Below, piece after piece: positions 37,801-60,660 of a stretch of DNA of 64,000 bases. Made by a program: the position numbers and the translations under genes. This DNA is from Camelus dromedarius (lineage: Eukaryota), in assembly GCF_036321535.1 (NCBI RefSeq), contig NC_087436.1, positions 186,001 to 250,000 on the forward strand. Reading direction: 5' to 3'. Under the pieces are notes generated by a model, which saw only the letters and a list, made by a program, of their open reading frames with translations, had not been told where the DNA came from and ran no database searches. How positions within the stretch are numbered: the stretch's first letter is position 1; each line of letters starts with the position of its first letter.

Positions 37801-40390
37801 GAAAATAATCAATCAAACCAAAAGCTAGTTTTTTGAAAGAGTAAATAAAATCGACAAACCTCTGGCCAAACTCACAAAGAAGAAGAAAGAGAGAGCACAA
37901 ATTTGCAAAATAAGAAAGGAAAATGGAGAAATTACAACAAATAACATAGAAATACAGAATATCATATGAGAATATCATGAAAAACTACATGGAAAAGTGG
38001 ATAACCTAGAGGAGATGGACAAGTTTCTGGAAACATACAGTCCACTAAGACTGAATCAAGAAGAAACTATCCACTTGAACAAATGGATCACTAGGAATGA
38101 AATTGAATTAACAATAAAAAACTTCCCTACAAATAAAAGTCCAGGACTGGACAGCTTCACCAGGGAGTTCTACCACACATACAAAGAAGAACTCATACCA
38201 GTCCTTCTCAAACTCTTCCAGAAGATTGAAAAGAAGGAATATTCCCAAACACATTCTATGAAGCCACCATTACCCTGATACCAAAACCAGGCAAAGACAC
38301 CACCAAAAAAGAGAATTACAGACCAATATCACTGATGAACACAGATGAAAAAATCCTTACCAAAATACTAGTAAATAAAATCCAACAGCACATAAAAAAA
38401 TAATACATCATGCTCAAGTGGGGTTCATCTCAGGGACACAAGGGTGGTTCAACATATGAAAATCAATCAATGTAATACTTCACATCAACAAGAGAAAGGA
38501 CAAAAACCACATGATCATCTCAATAGATGCAGAAAACTTTTGATAAAATTCAACACCCATTTATGATAAAAATTCTCACCAAATTGGGTATTGAGGGAAC
38601 ATATCTCAACATCATAAAAGCTATATATGACAAACCTACAGCCAGCATAGCACTCAACGGTGAAAACCTCAAAAGATTCCCACTAAAATCTGGGACAAGT
38701 CAAAGATGCCCACTATCACCACTCCTATTCAACATAGACTTGGAAGTCCTGGCCACAGCAATCAGGCAAGTAACAGAAGTAAAAGGGGTCTAAATTGGAA
38801 AAGAAGAGGTAAAAGTGTCACTATATGCAGATGACATGACAATATATATAGAAAACCCTAAAAGGTCCACACAAAAACTACCAGAGCTGATCGAAGAATA
38901 TAGCAAAGTAGCAGGTTACAAGATTAATGTTCAAAAATCAGTTGCATTTCTTTACACAAATGATGAATCAACAGAAAAAGAAAGTAAAGAAACAATCCCC
39001 TTTAAAATAGCACCCAAAGTAATAAAATATCTAGGAATAAATCTAACCACAGACGTGACAGAATTATACACAGAAAACTATAAAGCATTGGTGAAGGAAA
39101 TTAAAGAAGACTTTAAAAAATGGAAAGGTATCCCATGCTCTTTGATTGCAAGAAGCAATATTGTTAAAATGGTCACACTGCCCAAGGCAATCTACAGATT
39201 TAATGCAATCCCTACCAAATTAACCTGGACATATTCCATAGAACTAGAACAAATCACAATAAAATTTATATGGAACCATCAAAGACATAGAATTTCCAGG
39301 GCATTACTGAAGAAAAAAAGAAAGAGGCTGGAAGAGTAACTCTCACAGACTAGAGACAATACTATAGACTTACAGTCGTCAAGACAGCATGGTATTAGTA
39401 CAAAAACAGACATATAGCCAAATGGAACAGAATAGAGAGCCCAGAAATGAACCCAAATATTAAGGTCAACTAATCTTCAACAAAGGAGGCAAGAATATAC
39501 AATGGAATAAAGACAGTCTCTTCAGCAAGATAAACATAAGACAAGATACAATAAAATTCCTAGGAGAAAATACAGGCAAAATATCTGACATACATCTCAG
39601 AAATCTTCCCCTAGGGAAGTCTACCCAAGCAATAGAAATAAAAGCAAGAATAAACAAATGGGACCTAATGAAACTTACAAGCTTCTGCACAGCAAAGGAC
39701 AACTTAAGTAAAACAAAAAGACAACCTACAGAATGGGAGAACATTTTTGCAAATGAAACTAACAAAGGCTTGATCTCCAGAATATATAAGCAGCTCATAT
39801 GACTTACTGAGAAACAACCAAATAACCCAATCCAAACATGGGCAGAAGACCAAAACAAGCAATTCTCCAAGGAAGATATACAAATGATCAATGGGCACAT
39901 GAAAAATGCTCAATATCACTAATTATCAGAGAAATGCAAATCAAAAGTACAATGAGGTATCACCTCAAACCAGTCAGAATGGCCATCATTCAAAAATCCA
40001 CAAATGACATATGCTAGAGAGGCTGTGGACAAAGGGAAACCTCCGACACTTCTGGTGGGAATGCAGTTTGGTGCAGCCACTGTGGAATAGGTATTGAGTT
40101 TCCTCAAAAGACTAGGAATAGAATTGCCATATGACACAGGAATCCCACTCCTGTGTATATATCCTGAAGGAACCCTACTTCAGGATGACAGCTGCACCCC
40201 AATATACATAGCAGCACTATTTACAATAGCCAAGACATGGAGATAGCCTAAATGTCCATCAACGGATGACTGGCTAAAGAAGTGGTATATTTATACAATG
40301 GAAAACTACTCGGCTATAAAAACTGACAATATAGGGCCATTTGCAGCAACGTGGATGCTCCTGGAGAATGTCATTCTAAGTTAAGTAAGC
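34871..40390 (+). mobile_element. Lineage-specific LINE-1, near full length but disrupted; lacks the 3' UTR end and polyA
   Basis: ORF1 remnants at about 35538-36433 (RLSADFSTETLQARREWQDIFKVL). ORF2 endonuclease at about 36740 and RT (SLYADDM at 38815) with many stops and frameshifts. Homology ends abruptly at about 40390. Confidence 0.95.
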
Positions 40391-40418
40391 ACCGTAACAA
40401 GGAATAAAGAGAAGTTAC

Positions 40419-40554
40419 CTCTAAGTACAGTTATTTTGATTAAAATATACATACAGAAAGCAAGTCACCCCCACGACTGCTGCCAGGAGGAGCATCTGAA
40501 TGTAATAGCCTAGCCCAAGCAAAGTAGATTCCGACCTTCTCTCCGTAGAATTTC
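40419..40554 (-). pseudogene. ANO6: ANO6 pseudo-exon (~exon 8): KFYGEKVGIYFAW/LGYYIQMLLLAAVVGVTCFLYVYFNQNNCT*
   Basis: cag acceptor and gtaact donor. An extra G after FAW gives a +1 frameshift, and TAG replaces a Trp near the exon end. Confidence 0.95.
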
Positions 40555-40627
40555 CTGCAGAAAGACAGAAGGTAGTTTCAGAAGAAACACATATTCACTC
40601 TGTAGCTTCATCCTCATGTTAATTTCT

Positions 40628-40757
40628 TTTTTCTTTGTTTTTTGGTAGGGCATAATTAGGTTTATTTATTTGCTTTTTAAATGGAGGCATTGGGGATTGA
40701 ACCCAGTACCTCATACATGCTAGGCATTCACTCTACCACTGAGTTATACCCTCCTTC
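40628..40757 (-). mobile_element. Camelid tRNA-derived SINE (Vic-1-like)
   Basis: A and B boxes on the minus strand, T-rich tail on plus, imperfect target-site duplication (cat..taatttct). Confidence 0.85.
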
Positions 40758-43195
40758 CATCATACTAATTTCTGATTCTAAATCAAGGGGGCTTTAAGTT
40801 TAAACCTCTGACTCAATTCACACTTAAAACATATGCGTTTTCACAGCAGCCCCCAAATTCTACCGTGAAATAAGAAGTATTTTACGTATCATAGAAATAC
40901 AGATCACTGGTTCACCTGCTGAAGAGAGATAAATGAGAACAGAGCAAAGGAGGGGACGAGGCCGACTCCGGAGCAGATGCAGGGGATCATCACCACTCAC
41001 TGGACAGTCTGGCACATTCAACAAATCCCACCAAAGATCATTCTTAACAGGCTTGACACAAGTGGACTTCAACTACTGGCTCAGTCATCTGCGTCTGCCT
41101 TATCTCGGGAACTTCCCTGGAGCAAATGCAACGTAAACCACAGATAATAAGGAAATGGCTGATAATGATAACAACTGGGAGTGCAATGTCTCTCTGACAA
41201 AATATTTATAAAACTCATGTGGGAATGGGAGAGGGCAGGAGGGATGTGGCTGAGTAAGGAACTGCCCTGTATTCTTTGTATCTAGCACGTCGGCTGTTCC
41301 TAGGTTTCAAAAACCCTTCAATGTTACTCAGTTAATCTGGAGTAGACGGAACAGGCCAGGGAGGCAAGATTAGAAGAAAGGAGGCAGGGCACGAAGCGGT
41401 GCCAGGCTGGTCCTGAAAGGGAGACAGACACAGACAGGCAGACACAAAGGGCTTAGGGATGAGGCGGAACAATGAGGCGGAGGCTCAGGTGTGTTTGCTG
41501 CTGCTGCTACTTCCCTCAGCTGGAGCACTGCTGACGCGGCAGTGCTGGGTAAAACCTGTGACTTTCCTCAGCTCTGAGTTCTCTCGGAAGCTTCCGGCTC
41601 AGTCTGGAGCTGAGATGAGCTCCGAGGGCCTAGCCTAGGGGGGACTCAGCTCTGAGAACAGCCTGGAGTCCTGAGAAACTTCACGCAGGAACCCCTAGGG
41701 CTTGACCAGCGCTCACAGGGCTGCTGTGAGACCAGCTCCATCGTCAGAGACCTGGGCGTGGACCATTCCATGGGGAAAATGGCTGAGCCCGATGCCAAAT
41801 CAGATAGGAGGGACAAAGTGTGTTCATTCTCATGTGACTGGTCTTTGTGGCCTGGCTCACAGATGGCAGGCTCAGGATGGTGTCTGGCAGAGAAAACCCT
41901 GGCAATGGGTTTGAGATGTCTTGGACTCTTTCTTGTTAAGCTTTTTGTAATACATTCTTATCAACTATCCATCCTGAAAATGCCACATTCAAAACTGAAA
42001 GAATGTTAGAAGTTGCTTGCTCCAACTGGCCAATGGTAAACACACCCTGCTACAGTTAGAGAGCTGGTCAGGCAGCCTCTGCCTGCATATTTACAGTGAC
42101 GGAGAGTTCATTACTTCCAAAGGTTACATGTCGGCAAGAATGTCAGAAAGAATTTTTGAACCTTAAACAGATGTCTGCCCCCTAGTCCTTGCTGAAAGGC
42201 TAGAAATAATGAGGATCCCTTCAAATGTAGTTTTGTCTGATTGTTATCTCTCTCTGTCAAAAACACCCCAATTCTTAACATCAATTTTTCAAAATTCAGC
42301 TTTGATTTCTTTTTATCAAACTTATACCATACATTCATTAAAGAGTCAAACAGTTCTCGAACACCGATTGTAAAAAGGAGCAGTTCCCAACAACCACCCC
42401 ATTTCCTGGTCAGAAGCAACAATGTTCAGCTCCTACTGCTGACTCTTGGAATAAAAACTCCCTATTTCTGACTAATATCCTTGTAACACAGCCTACTGAC
42501 TTTTTCAGCTTTATGTATCACCTATTTAACTTTCTATTTTGGAAAATGAATATTAAGCTCTCTTTCAAACCACATCTCCTCTACACACCCAAACCTTCAT
42601 TCTTCCAACCTTTTGATACAAATACATTATAATTTTGATCAGCTCAGTATCCTTGCTTTACATTATTAGGACTCTCTACAGACTGTTCACAGCTGTAGCA
42701 AGTTGTCTGCTAGGCTTACTTTTTTATTCCCTACTTTGTTTTTCCTGGAGTTAATAATTGTCTTGGTGGTTCATAGCTTAGATTTCTCTGCGCTTAACAA
42801 TTCAACCCCATACCTTCTCCTAATGAATAACTTTCTCAATACTTTCCAATTCATTGTCTACAAATTTCATCTCCTTGAATAAATCTCTTCAGATCTCCTT
42901 CAACCTGGATTAACGACATGCTAGTCTTGTCACAGAGCTCAAGGGGCCACTAGTGGGAAGCAACAAGGGAATACATGGACCAGGAGAAGGGAACAGATCA
43001 ACATAATTTCCTTCACAAAACATACGTAAAATAGTGGGAAAATTGTTTTCTTTACAAACACAAACACACACACCAACCCCAAAATCCCATAAAGAATGAT
43101 TAAATAGCCATCAAACCCATTGCCCTGCCATCAAATTCTGTATAACATAAAACAAAAATAACAGAAGGAATATATCATATAAATATGAATCTCAA

Positions 43196-43300
43196 GGGGG
43201 ATGGGGTACACTCAGTGGCAGAGTGTGTGCTCAGCAAGCATAAGGTCCTAGATTCAATCTTCAGTACCTCCATTAGAAAAAAACATTAGAAACAATAGAA
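43196..43300 (+). mobile_element. Camelid tRNA-derived SINE (Vic-1-like)
   Basis: ggggatggggtacactcagtggcagagtgtgtgctcagcaagcataaggtcctagattcaatc followed by an A-rich tail. Confidence 0.8.
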
Positions 43301-43384
43301 AAATGTATCAACTTTAAATATTTACAAATATATAAACTTCCTCTTTTAAAACTGTTCTACAGGATAATCCGGGTTAATGAGAAA

Positions 43385-44130
43385 GTGCCTCTTCATGACT
43401 GTGATCCTGCTGATAATTGTGGGAGGAAATTAGAGTATGACCACATGAAATAAAATCCCTTATGAAATAATGATCCCGGGTGACAATCATTATTGGCTGC
43501 TGTCATCACAAAAAAGAGAGTCAACTGGACATCATGTACCTTATGACAGGAGTACAAAACTTCATATAACAAATATTCTTGCACAAATTTGAACCTCGTT
43601 CAGATCAAGCTTTTAGGGGAGGATCAAATCACTTAGCTAAAGCCAATACATAGGATGGAGAAATAAGTCTAACCACAGGGGAGAATGAAATCAACCAAAC
43701 AGGAAATAGAGAAATCCCTCAGCAATTTCAAGGAAAATGAGAAACAGGAAAATTATAGATTAGAACCCACTTGAGAGATATGCTAGCTGCAATGTGTGAA
43801 CTTAGTCTGGATCCTGATTTCAACCCCAAAACTGCTTAAAAGTGTATTTTTGTGACAATCAGGGAATTATTTTGTAACCCTAAAAAAAATGAATATTCCA
43901 ATTGTATTTGAAAGAGACCTTGTCATTTCACTAATGAAAGGTTAAGCTACGTAGGATTGCCTTCAAAATGATCCCGAAGTGGGGGAGGGGAAGAGGTGGA
44001 GATGAAAGTTGCAACAACAGTGACTCTGAGTTGATAATTCTGGAGATGGGTGACTGATACAGACAGGCTGGCTGTGCTGTTCTCTCTACTTCTGTACGTG
44101 TTTGTATCTTTCCATAAAATGTGAAACAAA
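43385..44130 (+). mobile_element. Old L1 (L1MC/ME-like) 3' fragment
   Basis: gcaatgtgtgaacttagtctggatcctgatt...ttgataattctggagatgggtga...tttgtatctttccataaaa. Confidence 0.55.
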
Positions 44131-45039
44131 CAAAAAGACTTCAGTGATTTAAAACCCTCACTTGGAAGGTTAAGAGGTTTGCCCAAGTAGGTGGGCATCT
44201 GAATGGGGCACTGAGATTAGGAAGATCAGGCACCTGGCTCCAGGCCGACCTGGGGCTACCTTGACCCTTCTCTTCTCCTCACCATCCACAGCCAGCCCAT
44301 AACTGCATCCTGTCAGCTCCACTCCCCAAACGCATTCTCCCTGGCTCCCACTATCTCTCATCTGGCCCACTCCAAGAGCCTCCGACCAGGCCTCCCTGCT
44401 TCCTGGGTCCCTGCAATTCATTCTCCACATTATCTTTGCAAATTGTGAGAGAAAATTACCTTAGTGCTTAAACTATCATGACTGTTTCTCACTGCACTTA
44501 GAGTCTACACTACTTTCCGTGCTCCTGATGCCCTTCTAAACCTCGCGTCTCATCACTCTCACCAGCGTTGGCTCCAGTATCTCCTCAAACCTGCTGAGCA
44601 CATTTGTGCCTCGGGGCAATGGACAAGCTGCCTCTATTCCTGGGGTGACTTATCCCAGATCCTCAAAGACCAGCCTCCTTATCACCATCTCAGCTCACAT
44701 GTAACCTTCTCAAAGATAGCTTTCTTGACTCCATTTCCCCCAAGTCTCCCATCTCAACACTGTATTATTTCCTTCATTTCAATCTGAAATTGTTTCCTTA
44801 TTAGCCCGATTATTTTTGTTTGCTCAGTTGTCCTTGGCCTCCCTCCTCCCAGCAGCCTTGCACAAACAGCATAAGCTCCCGGGGAGCAGCCGGCGCTGAT
44901 GCTCTGAGAATACACATGCTGAGCGCGACATTACAGTCACGTGGTGTAGTGAAACGGTGTCGAACAGCAGATAGAGCTAAGCAGTGAGAATACTTCTCTT
45001 ATTTTATAATTTAAGTGAAACCTAACATTTACTCCTGTT

Positions 45040-45480
45040 TAATGAAGAATTTGGTAGGTCTTTGTTCCCAGTTCCTGGACGGCAACCCCTAAAGCCTTGA
45101 AATTTCCCAAGATAGGAGTGTCTTTACTATTCATGGTGGACCCTTGGATGGCTTGTGTTCATGAGATAACTCAGGATGGGGACTGGCCAGCCAGAGACAC
45201 CAACCATGTGATTAGAGGAGTGGGGCTTTGAGCTTTGTGACAAGTGACTGACCATCAGGAGAGGTAGGGGCTCAAATGTTAGGGCTTTGACTTACAGTTA
45301 GTGTTTGGGGTAGCCATGTCAGTAGTGACCCAATAAATCATGTCTTTGTAATAAAGTCTCCAGTAAAAACTTGGGGCAACAAAGCTCAGAGCTCCTGTGA
45401 GCTTCCTGGTTGGTAACACTCTTGGAGGACTGTCACACTCAGAAGCCATGAGGGCAACCCTGAGCCCTTCCCACTGGAGT
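45040..45480 (+). mobile_element. MER21-like LTR, apparently 3'-truncated
   Basis: ggtctttgttcccagttcctgg...gataggagtgtcttt...accaaccatgtgattagagg...gagcttcctggttggtaacactc. Confidence 0.65.
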
Positions 45481-45499
45481 GCCCTCCACAACAGCTCAC

Positions 45500-45614
45500 C
45501 TGATGAGATCTAAGGGCTGCTTCTTGTCTATGCTTTGAGGAGGAGCACATTCCCTGTACAGAAGGCCCTGTTCGCTGGGGCAGCTGAGGTCCTCTGATGG
45601 AGGCTGAAGTTGCA
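45500..45614 (-). pseudogene. ANO6: ANO6 pseudo-exon (~exon 7): CNFSL/SEDLSCPSEQGLLYRECAPPQSIDKKQPLDLIR
   Basis: cccag acceptor and gtgag donor. 115 nt versus 116 (-1 frameshift). Confidence 0.95.
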
Positions 45615-47368
45615 CTGGGAAGCAGAAGCAAACAGGTGAGCGTCACTGTCACCACGTGTTCACATGTTCTGCTAATAAAATGTGGTGCTAACACTTTGTG
45701 GTCATTTGTAAATAAGGGGCCCTCCTTTGCCAGAAGGGATGGAGGTACCATATAATTTTTCATAATTCTCACCGAGGATTAATACTAACCCCTTGAGGGT
45801 CATTTGCAAACGTGGCTGGAAAGGAACACTTGGATGTTACAGTCCTGGGACCACCGTGGGTACCTGGTGAGGGCCTTGCAGATACTTAATGTCCTACAAC
45901 CGGGCCAGTCTTCCACAGCAAAAAAAACTACGCCACCCAAGTGCCCAAACTGCTTCAGTGGAGGCAGCAGCCCCCTCCTTGGACACCCAGAGGAACCTGG
46001 ACTCTGGCTGTTTAGGGGCAGGGTCAATTCTAAAACCCAGGCTTTTTTGTCCCCACAATTCAGTAGTTATTCGGTGACAGCACATGGAATATAAACAATA
46101 AAGAAACTTGACATGATGTTATATATTTAGCTTACTCAAGAAACAAAATTTAAATCCAGTCATTCTCCTTCCCACCTGATCTACTTTCCTTTCTCCTGTA
46201 CTAGAACCAGATTATTACCCACCCAGCCTTAGCATGGGTCCTGACTCCACTTACCTCCCTCCCAAACACCACATGAGATGATTCCTCAGCCTGGATGTGG
46301 AACCAGCAATTACAACAGGCTTTAGTGGAAAAGAAATGGTTGTGTGCAGATGCCAACTAAACACTGTAGAATCCTGGTGTCCCACATTAGTAATCATGAC
46401 AGCTGTTTGCAAGTGTCCCCAAAGTTCATTTCAGACTCTCACTGCTAATTTTGCTCGGATATAAATATGAAACATGTGGACAGCTGGGCTGGACTGCTAT
46501 GCTGAGTCTCTGATCCAGGAAGCTCAGTGTCTGCTCCCTGCAACCAGCTCCCTGTTCTGTTCATGCATGTGCATCAAGCAGCTGTTTAGTGTCCATTTTA
46601 GTATCTTAGACAGTGCATTTCAGTATGGTCTTCATCCACAAATACGTGTACCACACAGTAGTAATGATCAATCTCAGTCTTTGCTTTCCTTTGTCTTAGA
46701 GAGTCAGATAAACGGATAGCAAGGTAACAAAGTCATAGAGCGCTATAATATAGTATTTCCTTTATTTCAATGACAGGATTTATTTAAAGAGCTTAGATAT
46801 AACATCTTTGCATTTATGGCATCATTTAGCGTCTGAAGCTCTTACATTTTACAAACTTCATTTCATGCGAGATGTTGTCAGTTAGAGAAGTGCTTCTGAA
46901 TTTGAGGGGTTGCTGTCATCTCAGATGGAGTCCCTAAAAAATGTCAAAACTCTGCAGTATTGTCATCATGACAAGAACTCAGACAGATGAAATTTGGAAA
47001 GCCCTGTGATTTACTAGTGCACAGACAGAAAATGGTATTTCAGAGGGAAAAAGCCTGAATTACAGAAAATGATAAATGAAATGGTCTAACATGCATTTCC
47101 CTTACAGAGAACTAATACTTCTTTGGTTGATAATAACATCTGTCAGTAATTATGAAAAGAGCTGGCAAATGCATAGTACTTACTATTAGCCAGGGCTGTT
47201 CTAAAATTCAAGCAGATTCATTAATCCCCATAGCATCTCTACGAGGTGGGTACTATTATTATCCCCATTTTATTGATGAGGAACTTGATAAACACAGAGG
47301 CTAAATGACTTTTACAAGGTAGACAGCGAGAAACCAGCACAAGTGTTCCAGCCTGAGTCTATGCTCTT

Positions 47369-47552
47369 GGCCACTTCTACCTTTTTTTTTTTTTTTTTTT
47401 TGGTGGCAGGGAGATAATAAGGTAATTCTGGTGGGGGGTGGGGAGGTAATTAGGGTTATTTGTCTATTTTAGAGGAGGTGTTGGGGGCTGAACCCAGGAC
47501 TTTATGCGTGCTAAGCATGCGCCCCATCACTTGAGCTGTACCCTCACCTCTC
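47369..47552 (-). mobile_element. Camelid tRNA-derived SINE (Vic-1-like) with target-site duplication
   Basis: SINE body at about 47470-47550, poly-T on plus. Direct repeat gagtctatgctctt at 47355-47368 and 47553-47566. Confidence 0.85.
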
Positions 47553-47831
47553 GAGTCTATGCTCTTAGATGCTAATCCACACTGCCCCACATGGTAACTC
47601 TGGGGGAACTACAGTTCATTCATTCACCCACTTGTTAAACTCAGCCTTCCTGGTGCCTGGGATTCAGCAGTGAACAAGACAACATGGTTCCTGCCCTTAA
47701 TGTGCTTGTCGACTCCTGACATATTATCTTCATTTTACCCAGGAAGTAACAAGGTCAAGAAGACTCACCTTTTCCTGTTAACACCGGAGGATACATGAAG
47801 TGCTTTATTTCATTTCTGCCATTTGACTTAC

Positions 47832-47948
47832 ACCATGGGAAGGGAAAGCTGCCTTGCAGATCCCGGAGCTCACAAGCCAGTTAATCCTGAATTTTTTTTT
47901 AAAACTGTCCCTTACTTGATACTTGATCTGAGAAAGGATGAAGTAAAC
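47832..47948 (-). pseudogene. ANO6: ANO6 pseudo-exon (~exon 6): VYFILSQIKYQVRDSFKKKFRINWLVSSGICKAAFPSHG
   Basis: ag acceptor and gtaagt donor. 117 nt, open frame, one codon longer than human because of an A9 run. Conserved FPLHD is changed to FPSHG. Confidence 0.95.
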
Positions 47949-48172
47949 CTAAATAGATTCTAAGAAAGCGTGTGGTTTATACAGGGTAAATAACCAGCCA
48001 CTGTTTACTATCCTAACAGGAATCTGTAGGCATATTTCTTTTCTTTCTCTTTTTTCATTTTTATGGGCAGCTTTTAAAAACCAAACCAAACCAACAAAAC
48101 CAAATCACTTATAATTCAACAGCAGGTTCTAAATCACCCCCAAGACAGCAGCTAAACTCGGTTTAGACTTAC

Positions 48173-48459
48173 AGTGCGGCTCCTGGTGGTTGGATTGATG
48201 AATGTATCTCTATCCTGAATATAAAAGTCGTTCACGCAGCTCTTCTCAAATAGGGCAATGAAAAACTCTTGTTCCGGTTGTTGATACTTTCATCCACTTG
48301 GAGGACTTTCATAAAACAGCTGAAGGTATCAAAGGCTGAGGACACGGTTTTCAGATGATTGGGATTCAGAGGCAATTTTATGTACAGTATCTCAGCGTAT
48401 GTACAGAGCACCTCTCACAGGGTGTGTACATTTGCAAATACAAGCTTGTCATCCAAAAC
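48173..48459 (-). pseudogene. ANO6: ANO6 pseudo-exon (~exon 5): VLDDKLVFANVHTL*EVLCTYAEILYIKLPLNPNHLK...NPTTRSRT
   Basis: ag acceptor and gtaagt donor. TGA at 48415-48417 replaces a Trp. 287 nt versus 288, with a -1 frameshift after VDESIN. Confidence 0.95.
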
Positions 48460-49362
48460 CTATATTGGGAGAATGAAAACACAAACCAGGAAACTATTTT
48501 CACATTTTTAGTACACAGATTTTTCTTACATTGCTGGTAGTTAAAGCACTTGTGCAAACACACACAGATATGACACTGGTAAAAGTGAAGATATAATGAA
48601 AATAGATTTGCAAACCATCATACATTTTTGCCTTAAAGTTAATTTCTTTGTTGAAATTACTGAAAAGTTATTTAAAATCCTTACAATTCATTCATAAAAT
48701 AACCAATGTTTTAGATGAAGAAAAGTAAACTTGTTAACTTTTAGTCCAAATTAGTAACTAAAAATAGAAACACGAAAAAATTCTTTGCAGGGGCATTGTA
48801 ATGACAATTTTTTAAATTTCTTAAACCTAGGACTATTTACATATCTGTTCAATATAATGTTAAACAGCCATTAAAAGGGATTTAAAAGAATTATATTTAT
48901 TAATATGGAATATATAATAAAAGGAAAAAGAAAAAAATGTGAAATAATAATTTTCATTTTTGGAAGGGAAAAATATCTACATTTGAACAAAAAAATGTTT
49001 AGAAGGATTTTAAGATTCTTTATGTATAACTAAGGTACAGATGATTTTTAATTCCACTGTTTTTAGTTCCATTGGATTTTAATTCCAATGTTCTTTCATT
49101 TTCAATTTTGGGGGAATTTTTATAATAAAAAAACTTTAAAATTGTTCTTGCATAAATACATTAATAGATATATTTATGACTACATTCTCTGGCTATTATA
49201 AAAGATCTCCTAGCTTTGGATCTGAAACATACATTCCATAATGCAGATTCTGACTGACTCGCCTCCCAGTCCAGAGCGAAGGCACGGCTAGGGTGACATG
49301 TTTCAAATATCATTCCAGGGAACATGCAGGTTCCCAGCCAACGGCTGCAAAGGGACTGACAC

Positions 49363-49427
49363 TGATCTGCTTGCTCCCAGCTGCAGACCATCACAGATGA
49401 GTTTAGATTCATAGGCTCAAGTTTTCT
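49363..49427 (-). pseudogene. ANO6: ANO6 pseudo-exon (~exon 4): RKL/AYESKLICDGLQLGASRS
   Basis: ttttgacag acceptor, gt donor. 65 nt versus 66 expected, giving a -1 frameshift near the 5' end. Human: RKRQAYESNLICHGLQLEATRS. Confidence 0.9.
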
Positions 49428-50159
49428 CTGTCAAAAGAAATCAGAAAATGTTAGGCTTTTACTTTCACCAAGGGAACAAGAAGTTGTTTGATTTTCTTTT
49501 ATTAAAAAAAAAACAACAAACCAATTTGAACCTGAAGAAAAGACATTTGCTCAAAATACCACAGTAGCAATGAAGGTGTTCTGGCTGGCAGGGACTTGTT
49601 GGATTCCTGTGAGTGCTGGACTCCTCACATGGAATTCCCTTGGCACTCCAGAAGGCCTGTGGTTGTCCCCATGGGTTTGTGGCCATATGTGGTGCACAAA
49701 AGTCTCTGGCTTTGCCACAATTTCAAAGCCTTTTTTGGCTTATGAAAGGCTTTGCACTCAAATGGAGTTTTCTTGAGTCCACTCACTGATGTCATTCACC
49801 AGAGTTATAGTCCAGATCTGACATTCTAGACTCTTAAAATCTTGCAGACATTCAAATGGTTCAGGTTTGGATGTGTATTCACCTCTGCAGGCCTGGACCA
49901 AATTCCATAAAGCCACCCGGACAAGTTCAGCAAAATGCAAAGACATTTTTCTTTCTGCAAGACTGAAATGTCTGTGAAGCTATAAAAACTTCTGCATCTA
50001 CAAAAATAGGGAACCAACTCATCAATAACATATCTATCCATAATGCATGGACATTTGAAAAAATACTGTATTTACTCCTATTAAATTCTATCTGGCTTTT
50101 GCCAAATTGTGTCCTAAACTGTAAGGAAAGTATATAAATGTAGAGAATTTTTGACCTTT

Positions 50160-50965
50160 TAAGAGAAAAAGGAACCCTCCTACTCGGTTGGTGGGAATGT
50201 AAATGTTGCAGCCACCATGGAGGACAATATAGAGTTTCCTTAAAAAACTGGAAATATACTTCCGTGTGATCCAGCAATCCCATTCATGGGTATATGTCTG
50301 GAGAAAAATATAATTCAAAAAGACACATGCACCCCAGTGTTCACAGCAGCACTATTTACAATAGCCAACACACTGAAATAACCCAAATGTTCACTGGCAG
50401 ATGATTGGATAAAGAAGTTGTGGTATATTATATATATATGTATATTTACATATATACACGCATATACACACACATATATACACATGAACACACACACACA
50501 ATGGAATACTGCTCAGCCATTAAAAAATTAAATAATGTCTTTTGCAATAACATGGATGGACCTACAGGGTATTATGCTAAGTGAAATATGTCAGAGAAAG
50601 AAAAACAAATATTCTATTTATTAACTTATATGTATATCTAAAAAATAAAACAAATTAATTACTATAATAAAACAGAAATAGACTCACAGGTACACAGAAC
50701 AGACTGGTGGTTACCAATGGGGAGAAGGAGGAGAGGGAGGCAGGAAGGGGGTAAGGGATTGAGAGGTAAAAAGTACTATGTATAAAATGGATAGGTTATA
50801 GGGCTGTGTAGGAAAATATACACAGGGAAATATAGCCATTATTTTATGGTGACATTAAATGGAATATAATATATAAAGATATATATATTAATATATAAAG
50901 ATGTTGAGCCTCTGTGTTGTACACCTGAAAATATTATGATGGAAATCAACTACTCAATTATAAAA
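50160..50965 (+). mobile_element. LINE-1 3' fragment
   Basis: aaggaaccctcctactc...gttggtgggaatgtaaat...ccagcaatcccattc, followed by a typical L1 3' UTR and an internal TA/CA microsatellite. Confidence 0.9.
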
Positions 50966-51011
50966 TACTTAATCAAAGTTTTTTTCATATTATTTGCAAT
51001 AAGTTAGAAGC

Positions 51012-51300
51012 CAGCACTGTCAATAGAAACATAGTGCAAGTCACAATTTTCCAGTAATCCCATTTAGACAATAAAAAGGAACAAGTGTACTTAATTCCAG
51101 GAATAATTATATTTATCCCAAAATATCCAATATACTATCATTTCAAAAGTGTGATTAACAATTTTAAAACTTATTAATAAATATTTTACATTATTTTTGT
51201 TGTACAAAGTCTTGAAAATCTATTATGTATTTTCCACTTATAGAACATCTCAATTCACAATAGCCACATGTGGCTGGTGGCTACCATACTAGACAGAGCA
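51012..51300. mobile_element. hAT-derived MITE (MER3/MER33-like)
   Basis: cagcactgtcaatagaa ... aatagccacatgtggctggtggctaccatactagacagagca. Confidence 0.6.
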
Positions 51301-51483
51301 GATTACACCATTCACACTTCTGATAAATTACCTGCTCTTATTTATTTAAAAAACTTCCAGAAGAGGCTTTAGATATTCCCTATATCTAACAAAGCAACCT
51401 TGACGGGTGAGGAATATCTTCATTATAAAGTGAAAAATAAAGGTAAGAGAGCCATGGTTACATGTAAGTTAATGTAACAATTC

Positions 51484-51609
51484 CTTCTTAATTCATTCAG
51501 GACTTTACAATCTTTCTTCATATTCCAAGGATTCACTGTCATTGTGCAATGTTTTTCACTATAATCATCTTTGGAATTGAGAGGCTTCTGATGACCCTGC
51601 TTTGTGCAT
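51484..51609 (-). pseudogene. KLHL2: Isolated KLHL2 (Mayven) exon-2 copy: CTKQGHQKPLNSKDDYSEKHCTMTVNPWNMKKDCKVLNELR
   Basis: Matches the KLHL2 N-terminus recalled as CTKQGHQKPLDSKDDNTEKHCPVTVNPWHMKKAFKVMNELR. Intact polypyrimidine tract and cag acceptor, 126 nt. The donor reads gaattg (no GT). No BTB or Kelch exons seen downstream. Confidence 0.9.
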
Positions 51610-51665
51610 CTGTACATAAAAGAAAATAACAAAACAGAGAAAAAGACCTTATTAAAGATAATTTA

Positions 51666-51815
51666 GGGGGGTATAGCTCAAGTGAAAGATCATAGTCTTA
51701 GCATGCACAAGGGCCTGGGTTCAATCCCCAGAACTTCTTATAAAAATAAAATAAATAAAAACCTAATTACCACCCCCTGCAAAAAATTAATTAATTATTT
51801 TAATTAAAATTTAAA
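51666..51815 (+). mobile_element. Camelid tRNA-derived SINE (Vic-1-like), just upstream of the KLHL2 exon acceptor
   Basis: ggggggtatagctcaagtg...gggttcaatcccc, flanked by the repeat aaagataattta. Confidence 0.85.
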
Positions 51816-52884
51816 AAAAGATAATTTAGAGAAGCCTTATCAGGCTACAAGAGCTACAATGAATGCCCCTCCTCCATTAATTTAGAAGAAGTTTCACAAT
51901 ATTTCCCAACATAAAGGCTAAAATATAATTCGGAACACTTCCTGATGGTCAGCATCATTTTAACAAAAATGTAGATAATTACTTCCCTGGTGTCAAAGCT
52001 CTGTCAGAGATGGGCACAGAAAATTTAGTAAAAATTATTTTGCAACTACCTTTGAAAGAAATGCTGAGAAATGATCTTTTCTGTTGGAAATTAGCCTGCT
52101 TTTATATTCTGCAGTAGGCATATGTGTTTACAAACCAGGCAGGAACTGGATCATATTTTACACATACTTTAGAAACTGATTTGAATTTTGCTCTCTACCT
52201 GCAAGGCTATTTCTTAGGTAATAACATAAGCTGGCCACTATACTAAATTTTGTTTCCCTGTTTGCTTAATCCTCACAACAATTCTGTAAGCTGCTATTAT
52301 TACCCCCATATAACAGATAAAGAGCTTGAGGCAGAAAATAATTTGGGTAACTTGGTAAATGGTGGAGCTGGGTAATATCGCAGCCAGTCTGACACTCAAG
52401 TCCATTCTTCTCACCGATGTCTGATACTGCTGCCTACATTCAGCAATGACTCCTGATTTCATATTTAAGTGTGTCATTTCTAAAAGTGCAAAGCTATATT
52501 AGTACTGCTGTGTAAATTATTCTTTTAAGATGTGATTGCCAAAAAAAACAAAAACAAATAAAATCAGGGTGCCACTGAGGGGAGGGCGAACTGCATATGG
52601 ACGGACACAAGGGGACTTTTTGAGGACACAGTTGCACAACTATAGAAATAGCTAAAATGGCTGACTTGTACAATTATAATATGTGAATTGTATGGCCTGT
52701 AAATTACACCTTAATACAGCTATTAAATTAAGAAACTGAGATACCAAATTAAGATTAAAACACATATATATATATCACACATAGTACAACAGGCAAATAT
52801 CATTATTTACTGCACCATTTTCCTTCATGCAGCTTCCTTTCCTCACCTGTTCCTGAAAGGATGATTCATTTTTAAAATAGCCTT

Positions 52885-53900
52885 TTAATTTATTCAGCAA
52901 ATAATTTTTGACAGCCTGCAATGTACCCAGGACTACTCTAGGCACTAGGAAAAGATCAATAAACAAAACAAAAGTCCTGTCCTCACGGAGCTTGGTTGGA
53001 GTCTAGCTGGGGTGGGGGGTGGAGATGACAATTCACACAACAGAGCAGCAGAGGAGGTGGCATGCTAGGAAAGAGGAACCATGGAAAAAAGTAAAAAGGG
53101 CAAAGTAAAGAGAGTTGAGGGTATAGGATGAGGGTGATGTTGTATTAAATACCAGAGCAGGGCACACTGTGAACTGAGGTTAGAATTAAGACTAGGAGGT
53201 GAGAAGTCCCAGGTGGACAGAATAACCATCACCAAAGCCAGCGTGACATCTCATGTTCCAGAATGGGGGCACAGCTGGAGCTGCGGAGAAGGGTCAATGC
53301 AGATCCTGTATGGCCTTGGAGGACATTGTAAGGACTGTGGCTTTTACCCGGAGTGAAATGGGGAGGCACTGCAGAAGGACGACACAATCTAACTTAGGTT
53401 TTCAAGGCTCACTTGACTGCCGGGTGAGAATAGTGCAAACGGGTCAGAGATGAAAGGTGGGAAGCTACTGAGAAGGGCTTTGGAGGAGGAGAGGACAGTG
53501 GCTCAGGGAAGGGAAGCAGCAGTGGAGGCAGGAGCCATGGTGAGAAGTGGCTTGGTTCTGGATATGTTTTAAAGGCAGTGTTAAACCAGATCTATTGACA
53601 GAATTCATGTGGTATGTCAGTGAAAGTCAGAATAACTCCAAGTTTTTTGACCCAAGCAGCTGGAAGGATTAAGTTTCCACTAACTGAATGGGGGAGGCTG
53701 CATAAAGAACCAGTTTGGGGGGTAGGAGGACCAAAAGCTCAGTTTTTACACACGTTGGTTTTAAGATATTAGAGTTCCAAGTGAAGATGTCAAATCAGCA
53801 GAATATCATAAGAGTCCAGAGTTGGAGAGAAAAAGTCTAACGGGAGACAGAACTGTGTGAATCATGGGTCACACAGGTGGTACAGGAAGCCATGAAACCC
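52885..53900. mobile_element. Decayed L2-like LINE fragment
   Basis: attcagcaaataatttttga...aaagtcctgtcctcacggagctt...ggttctggatatgttttaaagg...aataactccaagtttttt. Confidence 0.55.
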
Positions 53901-56900
53901 AGGTACTCAAACATTAAGATAACCTTGCATTAACCATAGGAGTTATCCTTGAGGGCCTGCCTACTAGGTGAGGATATCAGTCCTATTTCCCGACCACTCG
54001 AGTTTTAAAAAGGAACTTACAAATGAATTCGTGCAAGACACTGCCTCCAGTGGGTGGGATCAGAGCTGGAGTCGGAGAATGGGATGGTGCACGCTACTCC
54101 CTACGGCAGATTGTGTGTGTGTGTGTGTACGCATGTTTGTGTGAGAAGGGGGAAGAGTTACACCTGTCTTAAGAAAAAGAGCTAGAAATTCTAGAAGCCG
54201 AAAAATGAAAGAACATCCAGATCTGGTAGAGGGAACAGGGGAAACACTGTACTGTAAGACATATCCCCATAATGCCATTTCCCACCATCCTTTCATCAGG
54301 AACACAGTTGGAAACTGGGGAATTATGTAGATACGTGTGATGTACACAAACTTTCTGACTATGTAACACTAAATATCTACATATGTAGCAAGTTAATGAT
54401 ATTTATATCTGCTTCAAGTTTAATAACAAGTTCACAACAGAGGGAAAATAAAATATTGAGGACTGGTAGAATTATCCTTGAAGGCCTTTCAATGCTCAGA
54501 ATGGAAGCAAAAGCGGCTTCACCCCACAAAGAATGTCATTGTGAGTCAAGAATGTTTATATTTGCTTAAGAAATTGAGAGTTACAACTTCCTGCTTTAAA
54601 GAGTTAACTTTAAGGCAGATACCATACTATAAGCAACATCTATACTGGTGCTTTCTTAAAGCTATTTTTAGTTCCTGCTTGTTCTGATGTACTCCAGAAA
54701 CTCTGCAAAGGAAACCTTCTATTCAAAGGCTTAAAGAATAAAAAAAGAAATAACACTGCATTCTTTTAAGTGTTCTCTGTACTGAAAGTCATTTGCAAAT
54801 GCAGCACCCTGCCACATATCTACATTTTTAACAATAAAGACTTTTGTGCAATTTTTCAATTGCTATGTGACTTTGCGTCAGTCTCTCACTCAGAAGCAGA
54901 ATAGAGTACCAGAAAATGACACATCATGTCTAAAACTACAGATGTGGAATATGAACTTACACCAGGAAACAGCTAAGTGGGAGGGTAAGGTTTACCTTTT
55001 AAGTTACCGTAAGTGCAGTTACATCTTCTCCCTGCTTCCCCTGTGAAGTGAAGAACTAGTCTTTTCCAGGAAAGCTCTCAATCTGAGTACTGTTTTCTTT
55101 AAAATATTTGGAGATACTTTTTTAAGGTTCTTTCACTTTTAAGTCTTTCCCCAACTCTACATCCCATAACAAGTGTTAAAATTATCCAATAGCCTATTGT
55201 TAGAGAACATACTGTACAAAAGCTGAGGTTTCCCAGTGCTTGGATCCCACAACTCTGCTACCAGATAATCCTAAAGCCTTCCTTCCATAACTGACTCTTC
55301 TGCCAATTCCCAGCTGAGGGCAAATTTGGCTTCTCAGCACAGTTAAATTTCTAACTCTGCCTACAAACACTCTACTGCCAGTAAGGGAACTCTAAGGGAG
55401 CCAACAAAGCCCCTAGTGAGTGTTGCCTCCTTCAAACAATCAAGATGCCATCACCAAGCAAATATTTAAACCTACTGCAAAACTTCTGAAGACATCTTAC
55501 AAACAATATAGTTTATATAGATTCATACTATTTGCTCTGGAATAGTGATTTCCAATGGAGGGAACAAAGGACCACATGACCCAAGCAATTATTTAAAATT
55601 TCACATAACTATCCCTATTCACCTGAGGATTCAGGCAAGCCCGTCTTATAGGTCTAGGTGTAACAGAATGGCAGCACCTCTTCAGTAGGGTGAAAAACAG
55701 CGAGGTAGACTTTTAGTGAAAGGGAGTGATGTAATAGGACCCACCGCCCACTTACCTCCCACCACAGGACAATCATCTCAGATCGAGAACAAACACTTTG
55801 GGAAACAGAGGTTGTTTATGTTTTTATGGTATCTGGTGGAAATAATGCCCTGAGTCACGTGAAGTTGTGGCTGCAAAATTGAACAGGAGACCAGACATTT
55901 TCACATTCAGGACACAAATAATCAGCCCCCGAGTGGTCACAATAACTGTTCTCCCCTTTGCCTGTTCATCCCAAAAGCTGCAGGACTCTCCTGCTTGCAG
56001 TGACACCCACCATTTCTCACAAATTCCTGCCAAGTTCACGTCAGCAGCTGGTGGTGTCAAAGTCAACATTTGTACTGCTCTGAAGTCTCTCCATTACTTT
56101 ATATCCTTCTATTTTCTCTGTTGTCTTCCTAGCTACCCTTGCATTCAGAAGCTGGTTAACGCACTAACATTGACTCTGTAATCAGTCCAGGATATAGGAA
56201 GCAGAGATTCAACTGTAACCAGTCCCAGAATACTTGTCATGCCACTCTAGTGTCCCAACAAAATACTCTGGCATCCCTCATCTCACCCAAAGAACCACCG
56301 CATTACTTAGAGGTTGTAAAATTAGAGGGTTTCTCTACTGGGAAACACTGGCTTGTGGTAGAGTCTTGATTTCAGTTTTTGCAACTAGTTACAGGCAAAA
56401 AGACATGGTCCGCAAATTTTCTTCAAGCGTTTGGAATTTAAACTTTTATTAGATACAGAGCCGGCGGACTAACCGTAATCTATGAACATATGGTCATATT
56501 ATAAAATAATGTCCATGTCTGCCTTACAGCCATGTAAGAACTTGAATTACACCTGCATCCTGTAGGCCTTTAGAATTGGATGTGAAGCATCCTGTGTTAA
56601 AAACCTCCTATCCAGTCCCAGAACACCTTAAAGACAACATCTCATTAATACCACTGAATACATTAGTATAGAACTTGTATGGTTAAGTTACATCTCCAAT
56701 TTCCCAGAGCTGGAAAGCAGATGCCTAGAAAGGCTGGAAAAGCCCAACTACCAAAACAGCTCAAAAGTTGAAGCAGACTCCTGCACCTCCCAGGGCGGAA
56801 GGTGGAGGGTGGAGGGGGCATTGCCAACCACACTGTCCTCCCCCAGGACGTGGCATGTGGGGAAGCAGGCAGAAGTGGGTGGCTGGGACTCACAGGTGGA

Positions 56901-58615
56901 GAGGTGATGAAAGCAGGAGTGGAACTGCTCTGGTCCTAGAACAACAGAGCTGTAAAAAGCTCGGCTTCAGTTCAACCCGCTTACTCTCCCACTTCCCCTC
57001 CCACCTACGTGACAAACAGAGCACAGTCAGGCACTTTCTGCCCATGACAGTGACTACTAGCAGGAAAGGGACCAGGATAAAAGCATGTCCTACAAAAGAT
57101 CAGTCTGATTTTAAAGACTGTGTTATAATCAATGAACAGCAGTGTCAGAGTGGGACACTTGTGAGGCGCTCAAATAAGGAGGAAGAGGCTGAGGATCCGT
57201 TTCCAGCACTTCCATGTCTTTTATCACTCCTATTTCTGACCTTTCCTTTGCCACGTTTTGTAGCACTGCCATCACTGGCAGGTAAAGGGGCAGCAATGAG
57301 ACTTGGCCGTTTGGCTGATGGGGCTACATTTCCCAGCACTGGAATGAAAAGGCACTGGAAGAGGAGCAGCTGGAAGATGTGAACCGCGGTCCTGGCCTGT
57401 GCCAAACACTAAACAGGTGACCCTGGGTTAGGCTGTTAGTCTCTCTGGGCTTCCGGCTGTTTACTTATAAAAGAAGGTTTTGTCATTGCACAAATATATC
57501 CAATATGAAATGTAACGTGAAAGTCAAACATAATGACATCTCACCTGCTTGCCTCAGGGAACTGTACAAGCACTGAACACTATGTGAATGTAAACACAGA
57601 GTTAAGAAAACTGTTGAGGTAAAGCGCTAAACTGAACATGGAGATAAAGTTTTTCTCCATGGATTTTCTTGGCTTTCTTTTTTAATTGCAACACTGAATT
57701 AATAGTTATTAGCTATACTCCACACCACCACCCCTGCGAATAACTAAAGTAGTTTAGCACTGCCTGGATGCCTGCTATTGCCCGATGCTAAGCAGGGTGA
57801 GGGTATAAAGGAGGCTGAACAATGGAGTCTTCTCCAGTTACCAGCTCAGTGAGGAGACACATTGGAAACCACCCAGGAATGGTACCAAGTCAGTACTCAA
57901 AGCCAAGATAACAGGCTACCGATCATAAACAGTGCAGGAATACAAAGAGGAGCTAGAAGTATTTGGAGTAAATAGGGAAGATTCTATGAAGGGGATAGGG
58001 ATTCAACTAGTTCTCAGGGCAATTCTAAGCTGTTTTAACTGAGGACTGGAGAGGAAAAGACTGGTGACTCCTGGTTTTTAATAAGGCACAGGTTACCCTC
58101 GGAGGCTAAGTCACATAATGATTGGAACACATAAGGTAAGGCCAAAATGATGAAGGTTCAAGCCTACCTGTCTGAGAACTGGTTGTGGTAAGTCTTTGAC
58201 TTGACTCTAGATGTTGGAAGGTCAAAATGGTAGGTTGACTGAAAAGGGGAGGTGAGAGAATATCCAAGAATTCTACAGAAGGAAAAATTCATGTATCAGG
58301 GATGAAAGCTCTTCATCAGAGTATCAGCAATCAGAATAGACACTTGAAACCAAAAACATACAGTTCCAGAAGCTGACAAAATGTGGAGGGTGGTGAGAGA
58401 AAGATGAATCAAAGTCCATTCCAAGCCTTTGGCTATTCAAGACCAGAAGAATGATGATCCCACTGAATAAGTGGAGACGCTGCAAGAAAAAAGATTATGA
58501 AATCAGCTTTAGACATGTTGAATCTGACATATGAGCTAAGAGTAGGTGTTCTCTAAGAAGCTCAAAATTCAAAACTGAAGCACAGATCTAGAGTACAGGC
58601 TTAAGCTGCAGATGG

Positions 58616-59742
58616 ACAAGACTTGATAAATCTCCTAAAAGAAAACATAGGCAAAACATTATCTGACATAAATCTTAGCAACGTTCTCCTAGGGCAATCT
58701 ACCCAGGCAATGGAAATAAGAGAAAAAAACAAACAAATGGGACGTAATTAAACTTATAATTTCCTTCACAGCAAAGGCAACCATAAGTAAAAGGAAACAT
58801 AAACTTATGAATGGGAGAAAATATTTGCAAATGATACGACTAACAAAGGCTTAATTTTCAGAATATATAAACAGCTCATACAACTTAACAACAACAACAA
58901 CAAAAAAAACTCAATCCAAAAATAGGCAGAAGACCTAAACCAGCATTTCTCCAATGAAGACACAAATGTCCAATAGATACATGAAAAAATGCTCAGTATC
59001 ACTAATAAACTGAGAAGTGCAAATCAAAACTACAATGAGGTATCAGCCCACACCAGTCAGAATGGCCATCACTCAGAATTTCATGAATGATAAATGCTAG
59101 AGAGGCAGAAGAGTGTAGGGTACCCTCTTACACTGCTGGTGGGAATCCAGTTTGGTGTACTCATTATGGAAAGCATGGAAATCCCTCAAAAAACTAAAAG
59201 TAGACTTACCCTATGACCCAGCAATCCCACTTCTGGGTATATAACTGGAAGGAACTCCAATGTGAAAAGATACCTGCACCCCAGTATTCATAGCACCACT
59301 GTATACAATAGCTGAGAAATGGAGGCAAGCTAAATGTAGCAACAGATGACTGGATAAAGAAGTTGTGGTATATTTATATACTGGAATACTACTCTACCAT
59401 GAAAAGGACAAAATAAAACCATTTGCAGCAACATGGATGTATCTAGAGATCGTCATTCTAAGTGAAAGCAACCAGAAACAGAAAAATACCAAATGATACC
59501 ACTCAGATGTGCAATCTAAAAAAAGAGAGAAAAAGACACTGTGAACACATTTACAAAACAGAAACAGACTTGCAGACTTAGTAAACAATCTTAAGGTTAC
59601 CAGGGAAAGGGGATGGGAAGGGATAAATCTGGGAGATTTACAAATGTTAGCCACTATATATAAAAATAGATTTTAAATAAAGTTTCTTCTGTATAGCACA
59701 GAAAACTATGTTCATTATCCAGCAATAACCTATAATGAAAAA
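58616..59742 (+). mobile_element. LINE-1 fragment (ORF2 3' end and 3' UTR), truncated at both ends
   Basis: Collinear with 39540-40390 of the large L1 and continues into the 3' UTR. Stops before the TA-rich terminal segment. Confidence 0.9.
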
Positions 59743-59844
59743 GCCGATACAGCCACCAACTGAGGAAGCAAGAGAAGAAAGGATTTAGTTATGCTGGGCT
59801 AGAGCCCACTTCTAAAATCCTTCTCAGCCACTGAGGCTGCCCCG

Positions 59845-60660
59845 AGTAACCTGAACCCTCCTCCCAGGGACAGGCTGACATGACATATGTCCTGCAAACC
59901 TGAGGCAGCAGAGGCCGTATCCAGGTCTGGCCCTGGGGGAGATGGGAGCAAGTCCACCTGCTCCCCCTCGGGCAGCACCCCTCCCCGCAGACCCTGCCTC
60001 CTGACTGCACCGCTCCTGTATCTCAGGAACCCACTGACTTTAAAACAAGTGGTCCACGAACCTGGGGTAGCGGCAGGGAGATGGGCAGCGACCTGGCAAG
60101 CTGGTCGATTTGCCCCCATATCCCCCACGGCCTGTCCAGGGCTCGGCCTCTGCTGCTCCAGGCACGGACCCCAGGTCAGCCTGCTCCCAGGAGGAGGGCG
60201 CGGTGTGGTCAAAGGCAGTGGCTGGTTATGGGTTCCGCCCATGTGTGCCAGTGGATTTGCTTCAAACTCCCCAGCACATGGCCTGAGCTTGGCCTCTGCT
60301 GCCCCAGGTTCGTGGAACTCAGGTTACAGGTCAGCCTGCTGCTGGAAGGCGGGTGCTGTGCTGTCAGGGAAAGGAGGCGGCTGCGATGGCGGGATTGGGG
60401 CTGCCTTGTGAGAGCGCAGGGGTTGCAACCACTTCCCGCTGCTGCTGCAGCCATTCCAGCACACTGATCGCACCGCGCCCACCTCCCAGGAGCAGCCTGA
60501 CCTGTAACCTGAGTCACAAGATCCTGGGGATTTAGAGGCCGCCTCCAAGGTCAGGCCGCGGGGAAGATGGGAGCAAATCCAGGGGCTCTCATGGGGCAGA
60601 CCCCATTCCATCCGAGGCCCCGCGACCGCACGGCACCCGCCTTCCAGGAGCAGGCCATTG
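59845..60660. repeat. Diverged ~157-bp GC-rich repeat array with direct and inverted copies
   Basis: The motif cctcccaggagcagcctgacctgtaacctgag...agaggcc...gatgggagcaaatcca recurs near 59845, 60466 and 60625 in forward orientation, and as reverse complement near 60170-60365. Confidence 0.75.

Follow-up and report, generated by a model that had tools for sequence, protein, structure and literature searches.

A KLHL2/ANO6 junction inside a hybrid L1 in a multi-copy, three-piece mosaic segmental duplication of the dromedary genome

The stretch of DNA analyzed here, hereafter the window, comprises 64,000 nucleotides of the dromedary (Camelus dromedarius) genome and corresponds to C1:186001-250000 in a 2.31-Gb assembly of 171 contigs; positions are window coordinates unless a contig is given. 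It contains sequences derived from two genes, KLHL2 and ANO6, side by side on the minus strand. With considerable confidence, the locus can be described as the junction of a three-piece mosaic segmental duplication, in which a CpG-island piece, 9.2 kb of KLHL2 and a genomic copy of ANO6 were joined, with a KLHL2/ANO6 join of single origin, and then amplified. An initial annotation had placed a KLHL2 exon-2 copy with its own acceptor about 2.05 kb upstream of the first ANO6 exon and had proposed that two unrelated genomic pieces were joined between 49430 and 51480, possibly at the L1 fragment 50160-50965. The two exon copies (51485-51609 and 49363-49427) are indeed separated by 2,057 bp, with KLHL2 upstream and its acceptor kept, and the assignment of the parents to different contigs bears out the joining of unlinked pieces.

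Both parental genes were located in the same assembly. Intact KLHL2 is found on C1 at about 11.57 Mb, with exon 1 (METPPRPPA, within a CpG island) at 11,562,280, exon 2 at 11,574,963-11,575,118 and exon 3 at 11,589,463. Intact ANO6 is found on C11 at about 50.6 Mb, with exon 2 at 50,585,007 and exon 3 at 50,614,810. Its exons 2-3 are single-copy in the genome (2 matches among 6 candidates), exons 3-10, which were compared, are all intact, and exons 4-10 are mostly about 100% identical to the alpaca ANO6 protein. KLHL2 and ANO6 are thus unlinked in the dromedary genome, being located on C1 and C11, respectively. In a blastn comparison of the window with the KLHL2 locus (150 kb) and the ANO6 locus (50 kb, up to C11:50660000), homology to ANO6 extends over 22082-50731 at 83-85% identity and homology to KLHL2 over 50498-59742 at 82.6-84.0% identity, both in minus orientation. 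Adjoining blocks of the window are therefore derived from different loci, ANO6 on C11 and KLHL2 on C1, and are followed by a third block that matches neither.

The 233 bp in which the two homologies overlap are an L1 3' fragment, which is present at the matching place and in the same orientation in both parents. In a three-way alignment, ANO6-like informative sites outnumber KLHL2-like ones by 131 to 8 in 49900-50162, by 42 to 16 in 50163-50433 and by 6 to 2 in the (TA)n(CA)n stretch at 50434-50515. Beyond this microsatellite the proportions are reversed, with 13 ANO6-like versus 41 KLHL2-like sites in 50516-50731 and 26 versus 260 in 50732-51290. Across the microsatellite, the identity of the window to ANO6 falls from 84.8% to 64.9%, and that to KLHL2 rises from 75.1% to 83.1%. 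Because informative sites and identities both switch parent at this place, the junction is an in-register hybrid L1, formed where both parents carry a repeat of the same orientation. The switch at about 50434-50515 lies within the interval proposed for the breakpoint and inside the L1 that had been suspected. The join would have been made by recombination of two L1 3' fragments of the same orientation, located in intron 2 of KLHL2 and intron 3 of ANO6, respectively, with the crossover at, or adjoining, the internal TA/CA microsatellite of the L1. The type of exchange may have been non-allelic homologous recombination (NAHR) or a replication- or microhomology-based event. After the fusion, the mosaic was amplified in waves and now exceeds 100 copies, most of which are close to the ends of contigs or on small contigs rich in repeats.

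The same arrangement of genes could also result if ANO6 intron 3 had received the KLHL2 piece as an insertion, perhaps through L1 3' transduction or some other transposition, in which case there would be no fusion breakpoint. The presence of sense-oriented L1 3' fragments on both sides of the KLHL2 piece is in keeping with such an event, and the initial annotation had named a return of ANO6 intron-3 homology upstream of the KLHL2 piece as its sign. However, only repeat matches to ANO6 intron 3 were obtained in 59744-64000 and in the next 10 kb. As intron 3 does not resume past the segment boundary, the KLHL2 piece is not considered an insertion into ANO6. Furthermore, the junction L1 resembles ANO6 in its 5' part and is already present in the ANO6 parent, and neither poly-A nor a target-site duplication is seen at 59742. 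An insertion is thus very improbable.

The mosaic is repeated many times, and copies of at least 1 kb with at least 90% identity are present elsewhere in the genome. A 301-nt probe around the KLHL2 exon yielded 132 candidates, the best 40 of which have 99-100% identity, and ANO6 probes at 45.3 kb and 14.1 kb yielded 123 and 130 candidates, respectively, at conserved spacing. For each of the probes at 14.1, 45.3, 51.4, and 60.75 kb, all 40 scored matches are at 93-100%. The 53-residue exon peptide found 142 candidates, all of which were scored; 137 match, and 120 rank above the true KLHL2 exon. A 59-nt probe gave 101 matches within three mismatches, compared to none in a reversed control. According to this probe, the subfamily of the window consists of 43 exact copies and 5 copies with one mismatch and is marked by a donor changed from GT to GA and by an exchange of His for Asn, while 19 copies keep the GT donor and the His, and 34 more have three mismatches, mostly with a G>T change at the donor. 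All seven sampled copies of the window's subfamily are colinear with it across the junction (97.5-99.5% identity over 3.3 kb), as are all three sampled copies of the older subfamily (90.6-91.8% over 3.5 kb), which have the same parental end-points by direct comparison. The subfamilies are about 9% apart. As the junction is common to all ten other copies examined, the hybrid L1 has a single origin in one fusion, which was followed by waves of copying. The view of the locus as part of a segmental-duplication hub was correct and, with more than 100 copies and a third piece carrying a CpG island, even understated.

These copies also bear on the reliability of the assembly. Misjoins are classically found in such places as an L1 containing a microsatellite, and the KLHL2 and ANO6 pieces could in principle have been connected artificially through a collapsed L1 repeat. 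This is hardly credible, because the junction recurs in the ten other copies, which are on different contigs, and because the independent annotation of Camelus ferus contains gene models that are spliced across the join. In addition, the flanks are 12-13% diverged from the parents and can thus not be misjoined parental loci, and of 20 public sequencing runs holding words sampled from a 4.2-kb stretch across the junction, 16 hold at least half of them, the runs coming from 11 studies.

Copies are located 0.2-10 Mb from the ends of C1, C3, C4, C6, C11, C15, C19, C22, and C23, as well as in the interior of C13 and on numerous contigs measuring 0.7-10 Mb. A hint at sex linkage in the initial annotation was not supported, as copies are spread over 20 or more large contigs (17-123 Mb) in addition to many small ones. 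Six convergent pairs of copies, 0.46-0.57 Mb apart, were observed on C57, C138, C22, C169, C42, and C11, for example C57:332331(+) with 807090(-) and C138:444286(+) with 921703(-), so that the mosaic seems to lie within inverted duplications of a much larger size. The Kimura two-parameter distance to the parent is 0.138 for ANO6 (22.6 kb pooled) and 0.120 and 0.134 for KLHL2 (blocks of 1.1 and 7.8 kb, with one L1 cross-hit excluded). Since the divergence of both gene pieces is equal, at about 0.13 substitutions per site, their copying dates back to roughly the same distant time. Mammalian neutral rates are about 1-2.2e-9 per site per year, from which an age of tens of millions of years is roughly estimated.

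The KLHL2-derived piece was identified by its single exon. The minus-strand stop-to-stop open reading frame (ORF) at 51423-51662 holds CTKQGHQKPLNSKDDYSEKHCTMTVNPWNMKKDCKVLNELRR and, as expected from the initial annotation, aligns to KLHL2, with 65-70% identity over 47-52 residues to the fragments P0127 and P0130 (phmmer; tblastn E values of 1.7e-19 and 3.4e-16). A search of 1.84 billion representative proteins with the exon-2 ORF returned 18 matches, among them these two N-terminal KLHL2 fragments ('METPPLPPACTKQGHQKPLDSKDD...') and a JGI protein titled 'kelch-like protein 2/3'. A search of solved structures with the same exon produced a weak match to KLHL3 only (E 0.4), so that the identification rests on the protein searches and on the alignment to the parental exon, to which the copy is 90.6% identical over 159 nt. 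The acceptor (...ttatgtacag, followed by A) is retained, and the donor is GA in all eight copies read and in the 48 copies with no or one mismatch to the 59-nt probe. Because 10 of the 12 nucleotide differences from the parent are non-synonymous and 2 synonymous, and because the donor is lost, the exon copy evolves without purifying selection. In agreement with the initial annotation, which had recognized neither further KLHL2 exons nor ANO6 exons 1-3 in the window, tblastn with P0127 and P0130 matches only the exon at 51485-51609. KLHL2 homology stops at about 59742, about 110 bp before the tail of the parental L1, and parental exon 1 (METPPRPPA) with its CpG island lies 4.4 kb past the end of homology and is absent from the duplicated piece. 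Just upstream of the exon copy, at 51650-51760, there is a tRNA-derived element resembling a short interspersed element (SINE; GGGGGGTATAGCTCAAGTG...GGTTCAATCCCCAG). The alignment to the KLHL2 parent is broken at 51666-51817 by this SINE-like element, either by insertion after the duplication or by loss in the parent.

The ANO6 part is a decaying unprocessed pseudogene. Its exon copies, distributed over more than 43 kb, follow the intron arrangement of the parent; since introns are kept, it is not a retrocopy, and a processed origin is ruled out by kilobases of intronic homology to both parents. The exon after exon 4 matches solved Anoctamin-6 chains with an E value of 1.5e-10. Most exon copies contain stops and frameshifts according to tblastn with ANO6 proteins, which did not find residues 1-85 of ANO6 in the window. 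At the internal deletion point (Table 1), the missing part of the parent includes exons 9-10 (parental 37918-38025 and 41548-41610). Conversely, about 5.5 kb at 34880-40388 correspond to about 1.7 kb of the ANO6 parent. The surplus DNA is rich in L1-type cross-hits, so that an L1 was inserted here after the duplication or lost from the parent. A further set of 3' exon fragments from ANO6 was observed on C98, C6 (88-91 Mb), C67, C112, C42, and C86, at places that do not fit the layout of the window's copies; an ANO6 3' query gave 352 candidates in all. In this set, residues of about 701-737 are preserved at 79-84% and residues 768-823 at 53-66%, with several stops and parent-like spacing.

The third piece, upstream of the KLHL2 sequences, has a GC content of 0.64 at 60-62 kb. 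Its CpG island is positioned 9.3 kb upstream of the KLHL2 exon copy, and this spacing is conserved among copies. A 601-nt probe from this piece yielded 347 candidates, the best 40 of which have 93-100% identity. The probe is thus commoner than the KLHL2 and ANO6 probes, and some of its sites have no listed KLHL2 or ANO6 neighbor (C36:14391648, C27:26692404); the CpG-island piece may be the mosaic's 'core' or older component. No Pfam family scored above the cut-off for the 132 ORFs of at least 60 amino acids in 59744-64000, the next 10 kb and 1-6000, with two sub-threshold chance matches, and a protein search with the 159-residue ORF at 60860-61336(-) scored nothing among 418 candidates. Sensitive blastn of the piece against the parental KLHL2 promoter region retrieved the known L1 edge only, and an ATG at about 61.23 kb ('METRRDEQ') was excluded as KLHL2 exon 1 on this basis.

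Table 1. Features of the three-piece mosaic in and next to the window
Feature	Position	Strand	Remarks
Third duplicon piece (CpG-island piece)	59744..64000	-	CpG island at about 60.5-61.35 kb; runs past window end
Exons of LOC116661546 in the CpG-island piece	61948-61841, 61134-60916	-	P0124 maps to this piece
L1 3' fragment at the boundary of the CpG-island and KLHL2 pieces	59300..59742	+	pairwise alignment to KLHL2 parent; many L1 cross-hits
KLHL2-derived piece	50516..59742	-	intron 1 (3' 8.1 kb), exon 2, start of intron 2 (about 1 kb); 9.2 kb; parental C1:11566907-11576102
KLHL2 exon-2 copy	51485..51609	-	acceptor kept; canonical donor GT changed to GA
Hybrid L1 3' fragment with KLHL2/ANO6 junction	50163..50965	+	crossover at about 50434-50515, (TA)n(CA)n microsatellite; three-way alignment
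ANO6-derived unprocessed pseudogene	1..50433	-	intron 3 (about 1 kb), exon 4 and downstream parts, past window start
Former ANO6 intron 3, exon in LOC116661728 models	49883..49997	-	tblastn of P0001 and P0140; AG and GT sites present; stop 5 codons in
ANO6 exon-4 copy	49363..49427	-	reads AYESKLICDGLQLGASRS; preceded by in-frame TGA; 1-nt deletion relative to parent
ANO6 exon copies after exon 4	48459-48170, 47948-47835, 45624-45499, 40568-40424, 21161-21045	-	tblastn with ANO6 proteins
Internal deletion point	29251..29254		about 6.07 kb of parent (ANO6par 36811-42877) missing; adjoining blastn blocks
ANO6 exon copies, further 3'	18756-18682, 14459-14183, 13151-12957, 12814-12701, 6081-5983	-	tblastn with ANO6 proteins
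Next ANO6 exon outside the window	C1:185106-185327	-	674 bp before window start

In Camelus ferus, the 'uncharacterized protein' models LOC116661728 (isoforms named up to X8) and LOC116661546 (XP_032330132.1, XP_032330143.1, XP_032329732.1), which are predictions from this other species, combine exons of the CpG-island piece, the KLHL2 exon and ANO6 exons. On the window, the order of their exons is 61948-61841, 61134-60916, the KLHL2 exon, 49997-49883, ANO6 exon 4 and later ANO6 exons. The dromedary locus contains the same chain, from the exon of the CpG-island piece via KLHL2 exon 2 and the exonized intron to the ANO6 exons, with per-exon identities of 69-100%. The C. ferus models keep the GT donor and the 'WH' residues, as does the older subfamily in the dromedary, whereas the window belongs to the derived subfamily that has lost the donor. 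The best match in the genome to the C. ferus exon-2 peptide is 96%, never 100%. The terminal exons of P0140 (C. ferus isoform X4) are found at 12811-12713 and 8970-8836 on the minus strand with 100% identity over 33 and 45 residues, while its 5' exons reach only 57-89%; either conservation is uneven or the subfamily relationship varies along the unit. The predicted proteins have 215-332 residues and match PF16178 (Anoct_dimer). In these models, ANO6 exon 4 is translated out of frame and beyond its donor, and introns are read through.

Several observations weigh against the reading of the locus as a once-joined, amplified and decaying mosaic. Repeats aside, the CpG-island piece is without homology to the 150 kb of the KLHL2 parent and the 50 kb of the ANO6 parent. 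If some small contigs represent uncollapsed haplotypes, the number of copies may have been overestimated. Although about 39 of the 120 KLHL2 exon copies have a stop codon within the exon (table count), 81 of the 120 keep an open 53-codon stretch. As for transcription, RNA-labeled runs hold 42-69% of the sampled words of the mostly intronic stretch 47800-52000, but this signal could be DNA carry-over or unspliced RNA. A short protein might still be produced from the mosaic, as judged from the Anoct_dimer match retained in the C. ferus models and from the open exon copies. With respect to the junction, the parental L1s are today only about 67-75% alike, which is low for classical NAHR, so that a microhomology or replication event at the microsatellite is as likely a mechanism.

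In the extreme form of the latter mechanism, the pieces would have been joined by non-homologous or microhomology-mediated repair (template switching) at the fragile TA/CA microsatellite, and the flanking L1 would be a coincidence of repeat density, not a substrate. The low similarity of the parental L1s and the position of the switch in the microsatellite itself (50434-50515) fit this scenario. In contrast, the hybrid is colinear with both parental L1s, no L1 register having been gained or lost beside the microsatellite, as predicted for a homology-guided exchange, and the microsatellite is an internal feature that the two L1 copies have in common. Repair of this kind is thus an appreciable but less probable alternative to an exchange guided by the two L1s.

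The open exon copies and the RNA-labeled runs, together with the C. ferus models and the CpG island at its conserved distance, could also indicate a functional lineage-specific family of fusion genes, in which a captured CpG-island promoter drives a KLHL2 N-terminal peptide fused to the N-terminal dimerization region of an anoctamin. In the window copy, however, a splice like that of the models results in an ORF that ends after 57 residues, ANO6 exons 4 and 5 carry stops and a frameshift, and coding capacity for a BTB, Kelch or anoctamin membrane domain is lacking. The ratio of 10 non-synonymous to 2 synonymous changes, the loss of the exon-2 donor, which affects the largest subfamily, the early stop and the interrupted exon copies are not the pattern that purifying selection on the ORF would leave, and the C. 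ferus models themselves depend on out-of-frame and intronic sequence. A working fusion gene family is therefore considered quite unlikely. The output of the amplified mosaic is likely to be a promoter-driven chimeric non-coding or short-ORF transcript rather than a functional protein of either KLHL2 or ANO6.

Segmental duplications of mosaic structure, joined at repeats and giving rise to fusion transcripts, are well known from the pericentromeric and subtelomeric duplication hubs and 'core duplicons' of primates, in which the duplication junctions are typically Alu-rich. As in these hubs, the KLHL2-ANO6 mosaic joins pieces of unlinked genes with a junction in an interspersed repeat, its copies are many, highly alike and near chromosome ends, and a captured promoter is tied to chimeric gene models. 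It differs from the primate hubs in its camelid host, in KLHL2 and ANO6 as sources and in the L1-L1 junction in place of an Alu-rich one. More speculatively, and with a rather low probability, the three-piece unit could be a camelid 'core duplicon', that is, a promoter-bearing element that seeds blocks at most chromosome ends, including the convergent pairs 0.46-0.57 Mb apart, and that is transcribed, perhaps in the germline, into lineage-specific short proteins or regulatory RNAs acting on ANO6 or KLHL2 expression.

Pseudogene-rich blocks derived from NEK10, ATF5, FMN2, and other genes have been described for the alpaca in a 2026 paper and were interpreted as segmental duplication followed by decay (PMC13751797). 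These blocks resemble the KLHL2-ANO6 family in being multi-copy, fragmented gene-derived sequences in repeat-rich domains of camelid chromosomes. They are local to chromosomes 11, 17, and 36 with 5-19 copies (PMC13751797), whereas the copies of the KLHL2-ANO6 family number more than 100, are scattered over many contigs and have counterparts in C. ferus models. Neither ANO6 nor KLHL2 is mentioned in the paper outside its supplements, which might list further blocks (PMC13751797). Full-text searches of the literature retrieved no paper connecting the two genes in camelids, and none connecting ANO6 with duplications in camelid genomes. Segmental duplications of this sort, mosaic in structure, joined at a repeat and carrying a captured promoter, are of a known kind, while the searches yielded no description of the KLHL2-ANO6 family itself.

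Although there is no sign of a new mechanism or of a working protein, and no new protein function is indicated, the family provides a base-level example from outside the primates of how an interspersed repeat fuses pieces of two unlinked genes into a mosaic that spreads to more than 100 sites. If the 64-kb window is present 130 times, the family would account for at least about 8 Mb of the assembly. In work on camelid genomes, its fragments resembling ANO6 and KLHL2 will be a source of error for annotation, read mapping and copy-number calls. At the same time, the family marks duplication-rich chromosome ends, and its subfamilies represent a dated series for the study of how duplication blocks spread.

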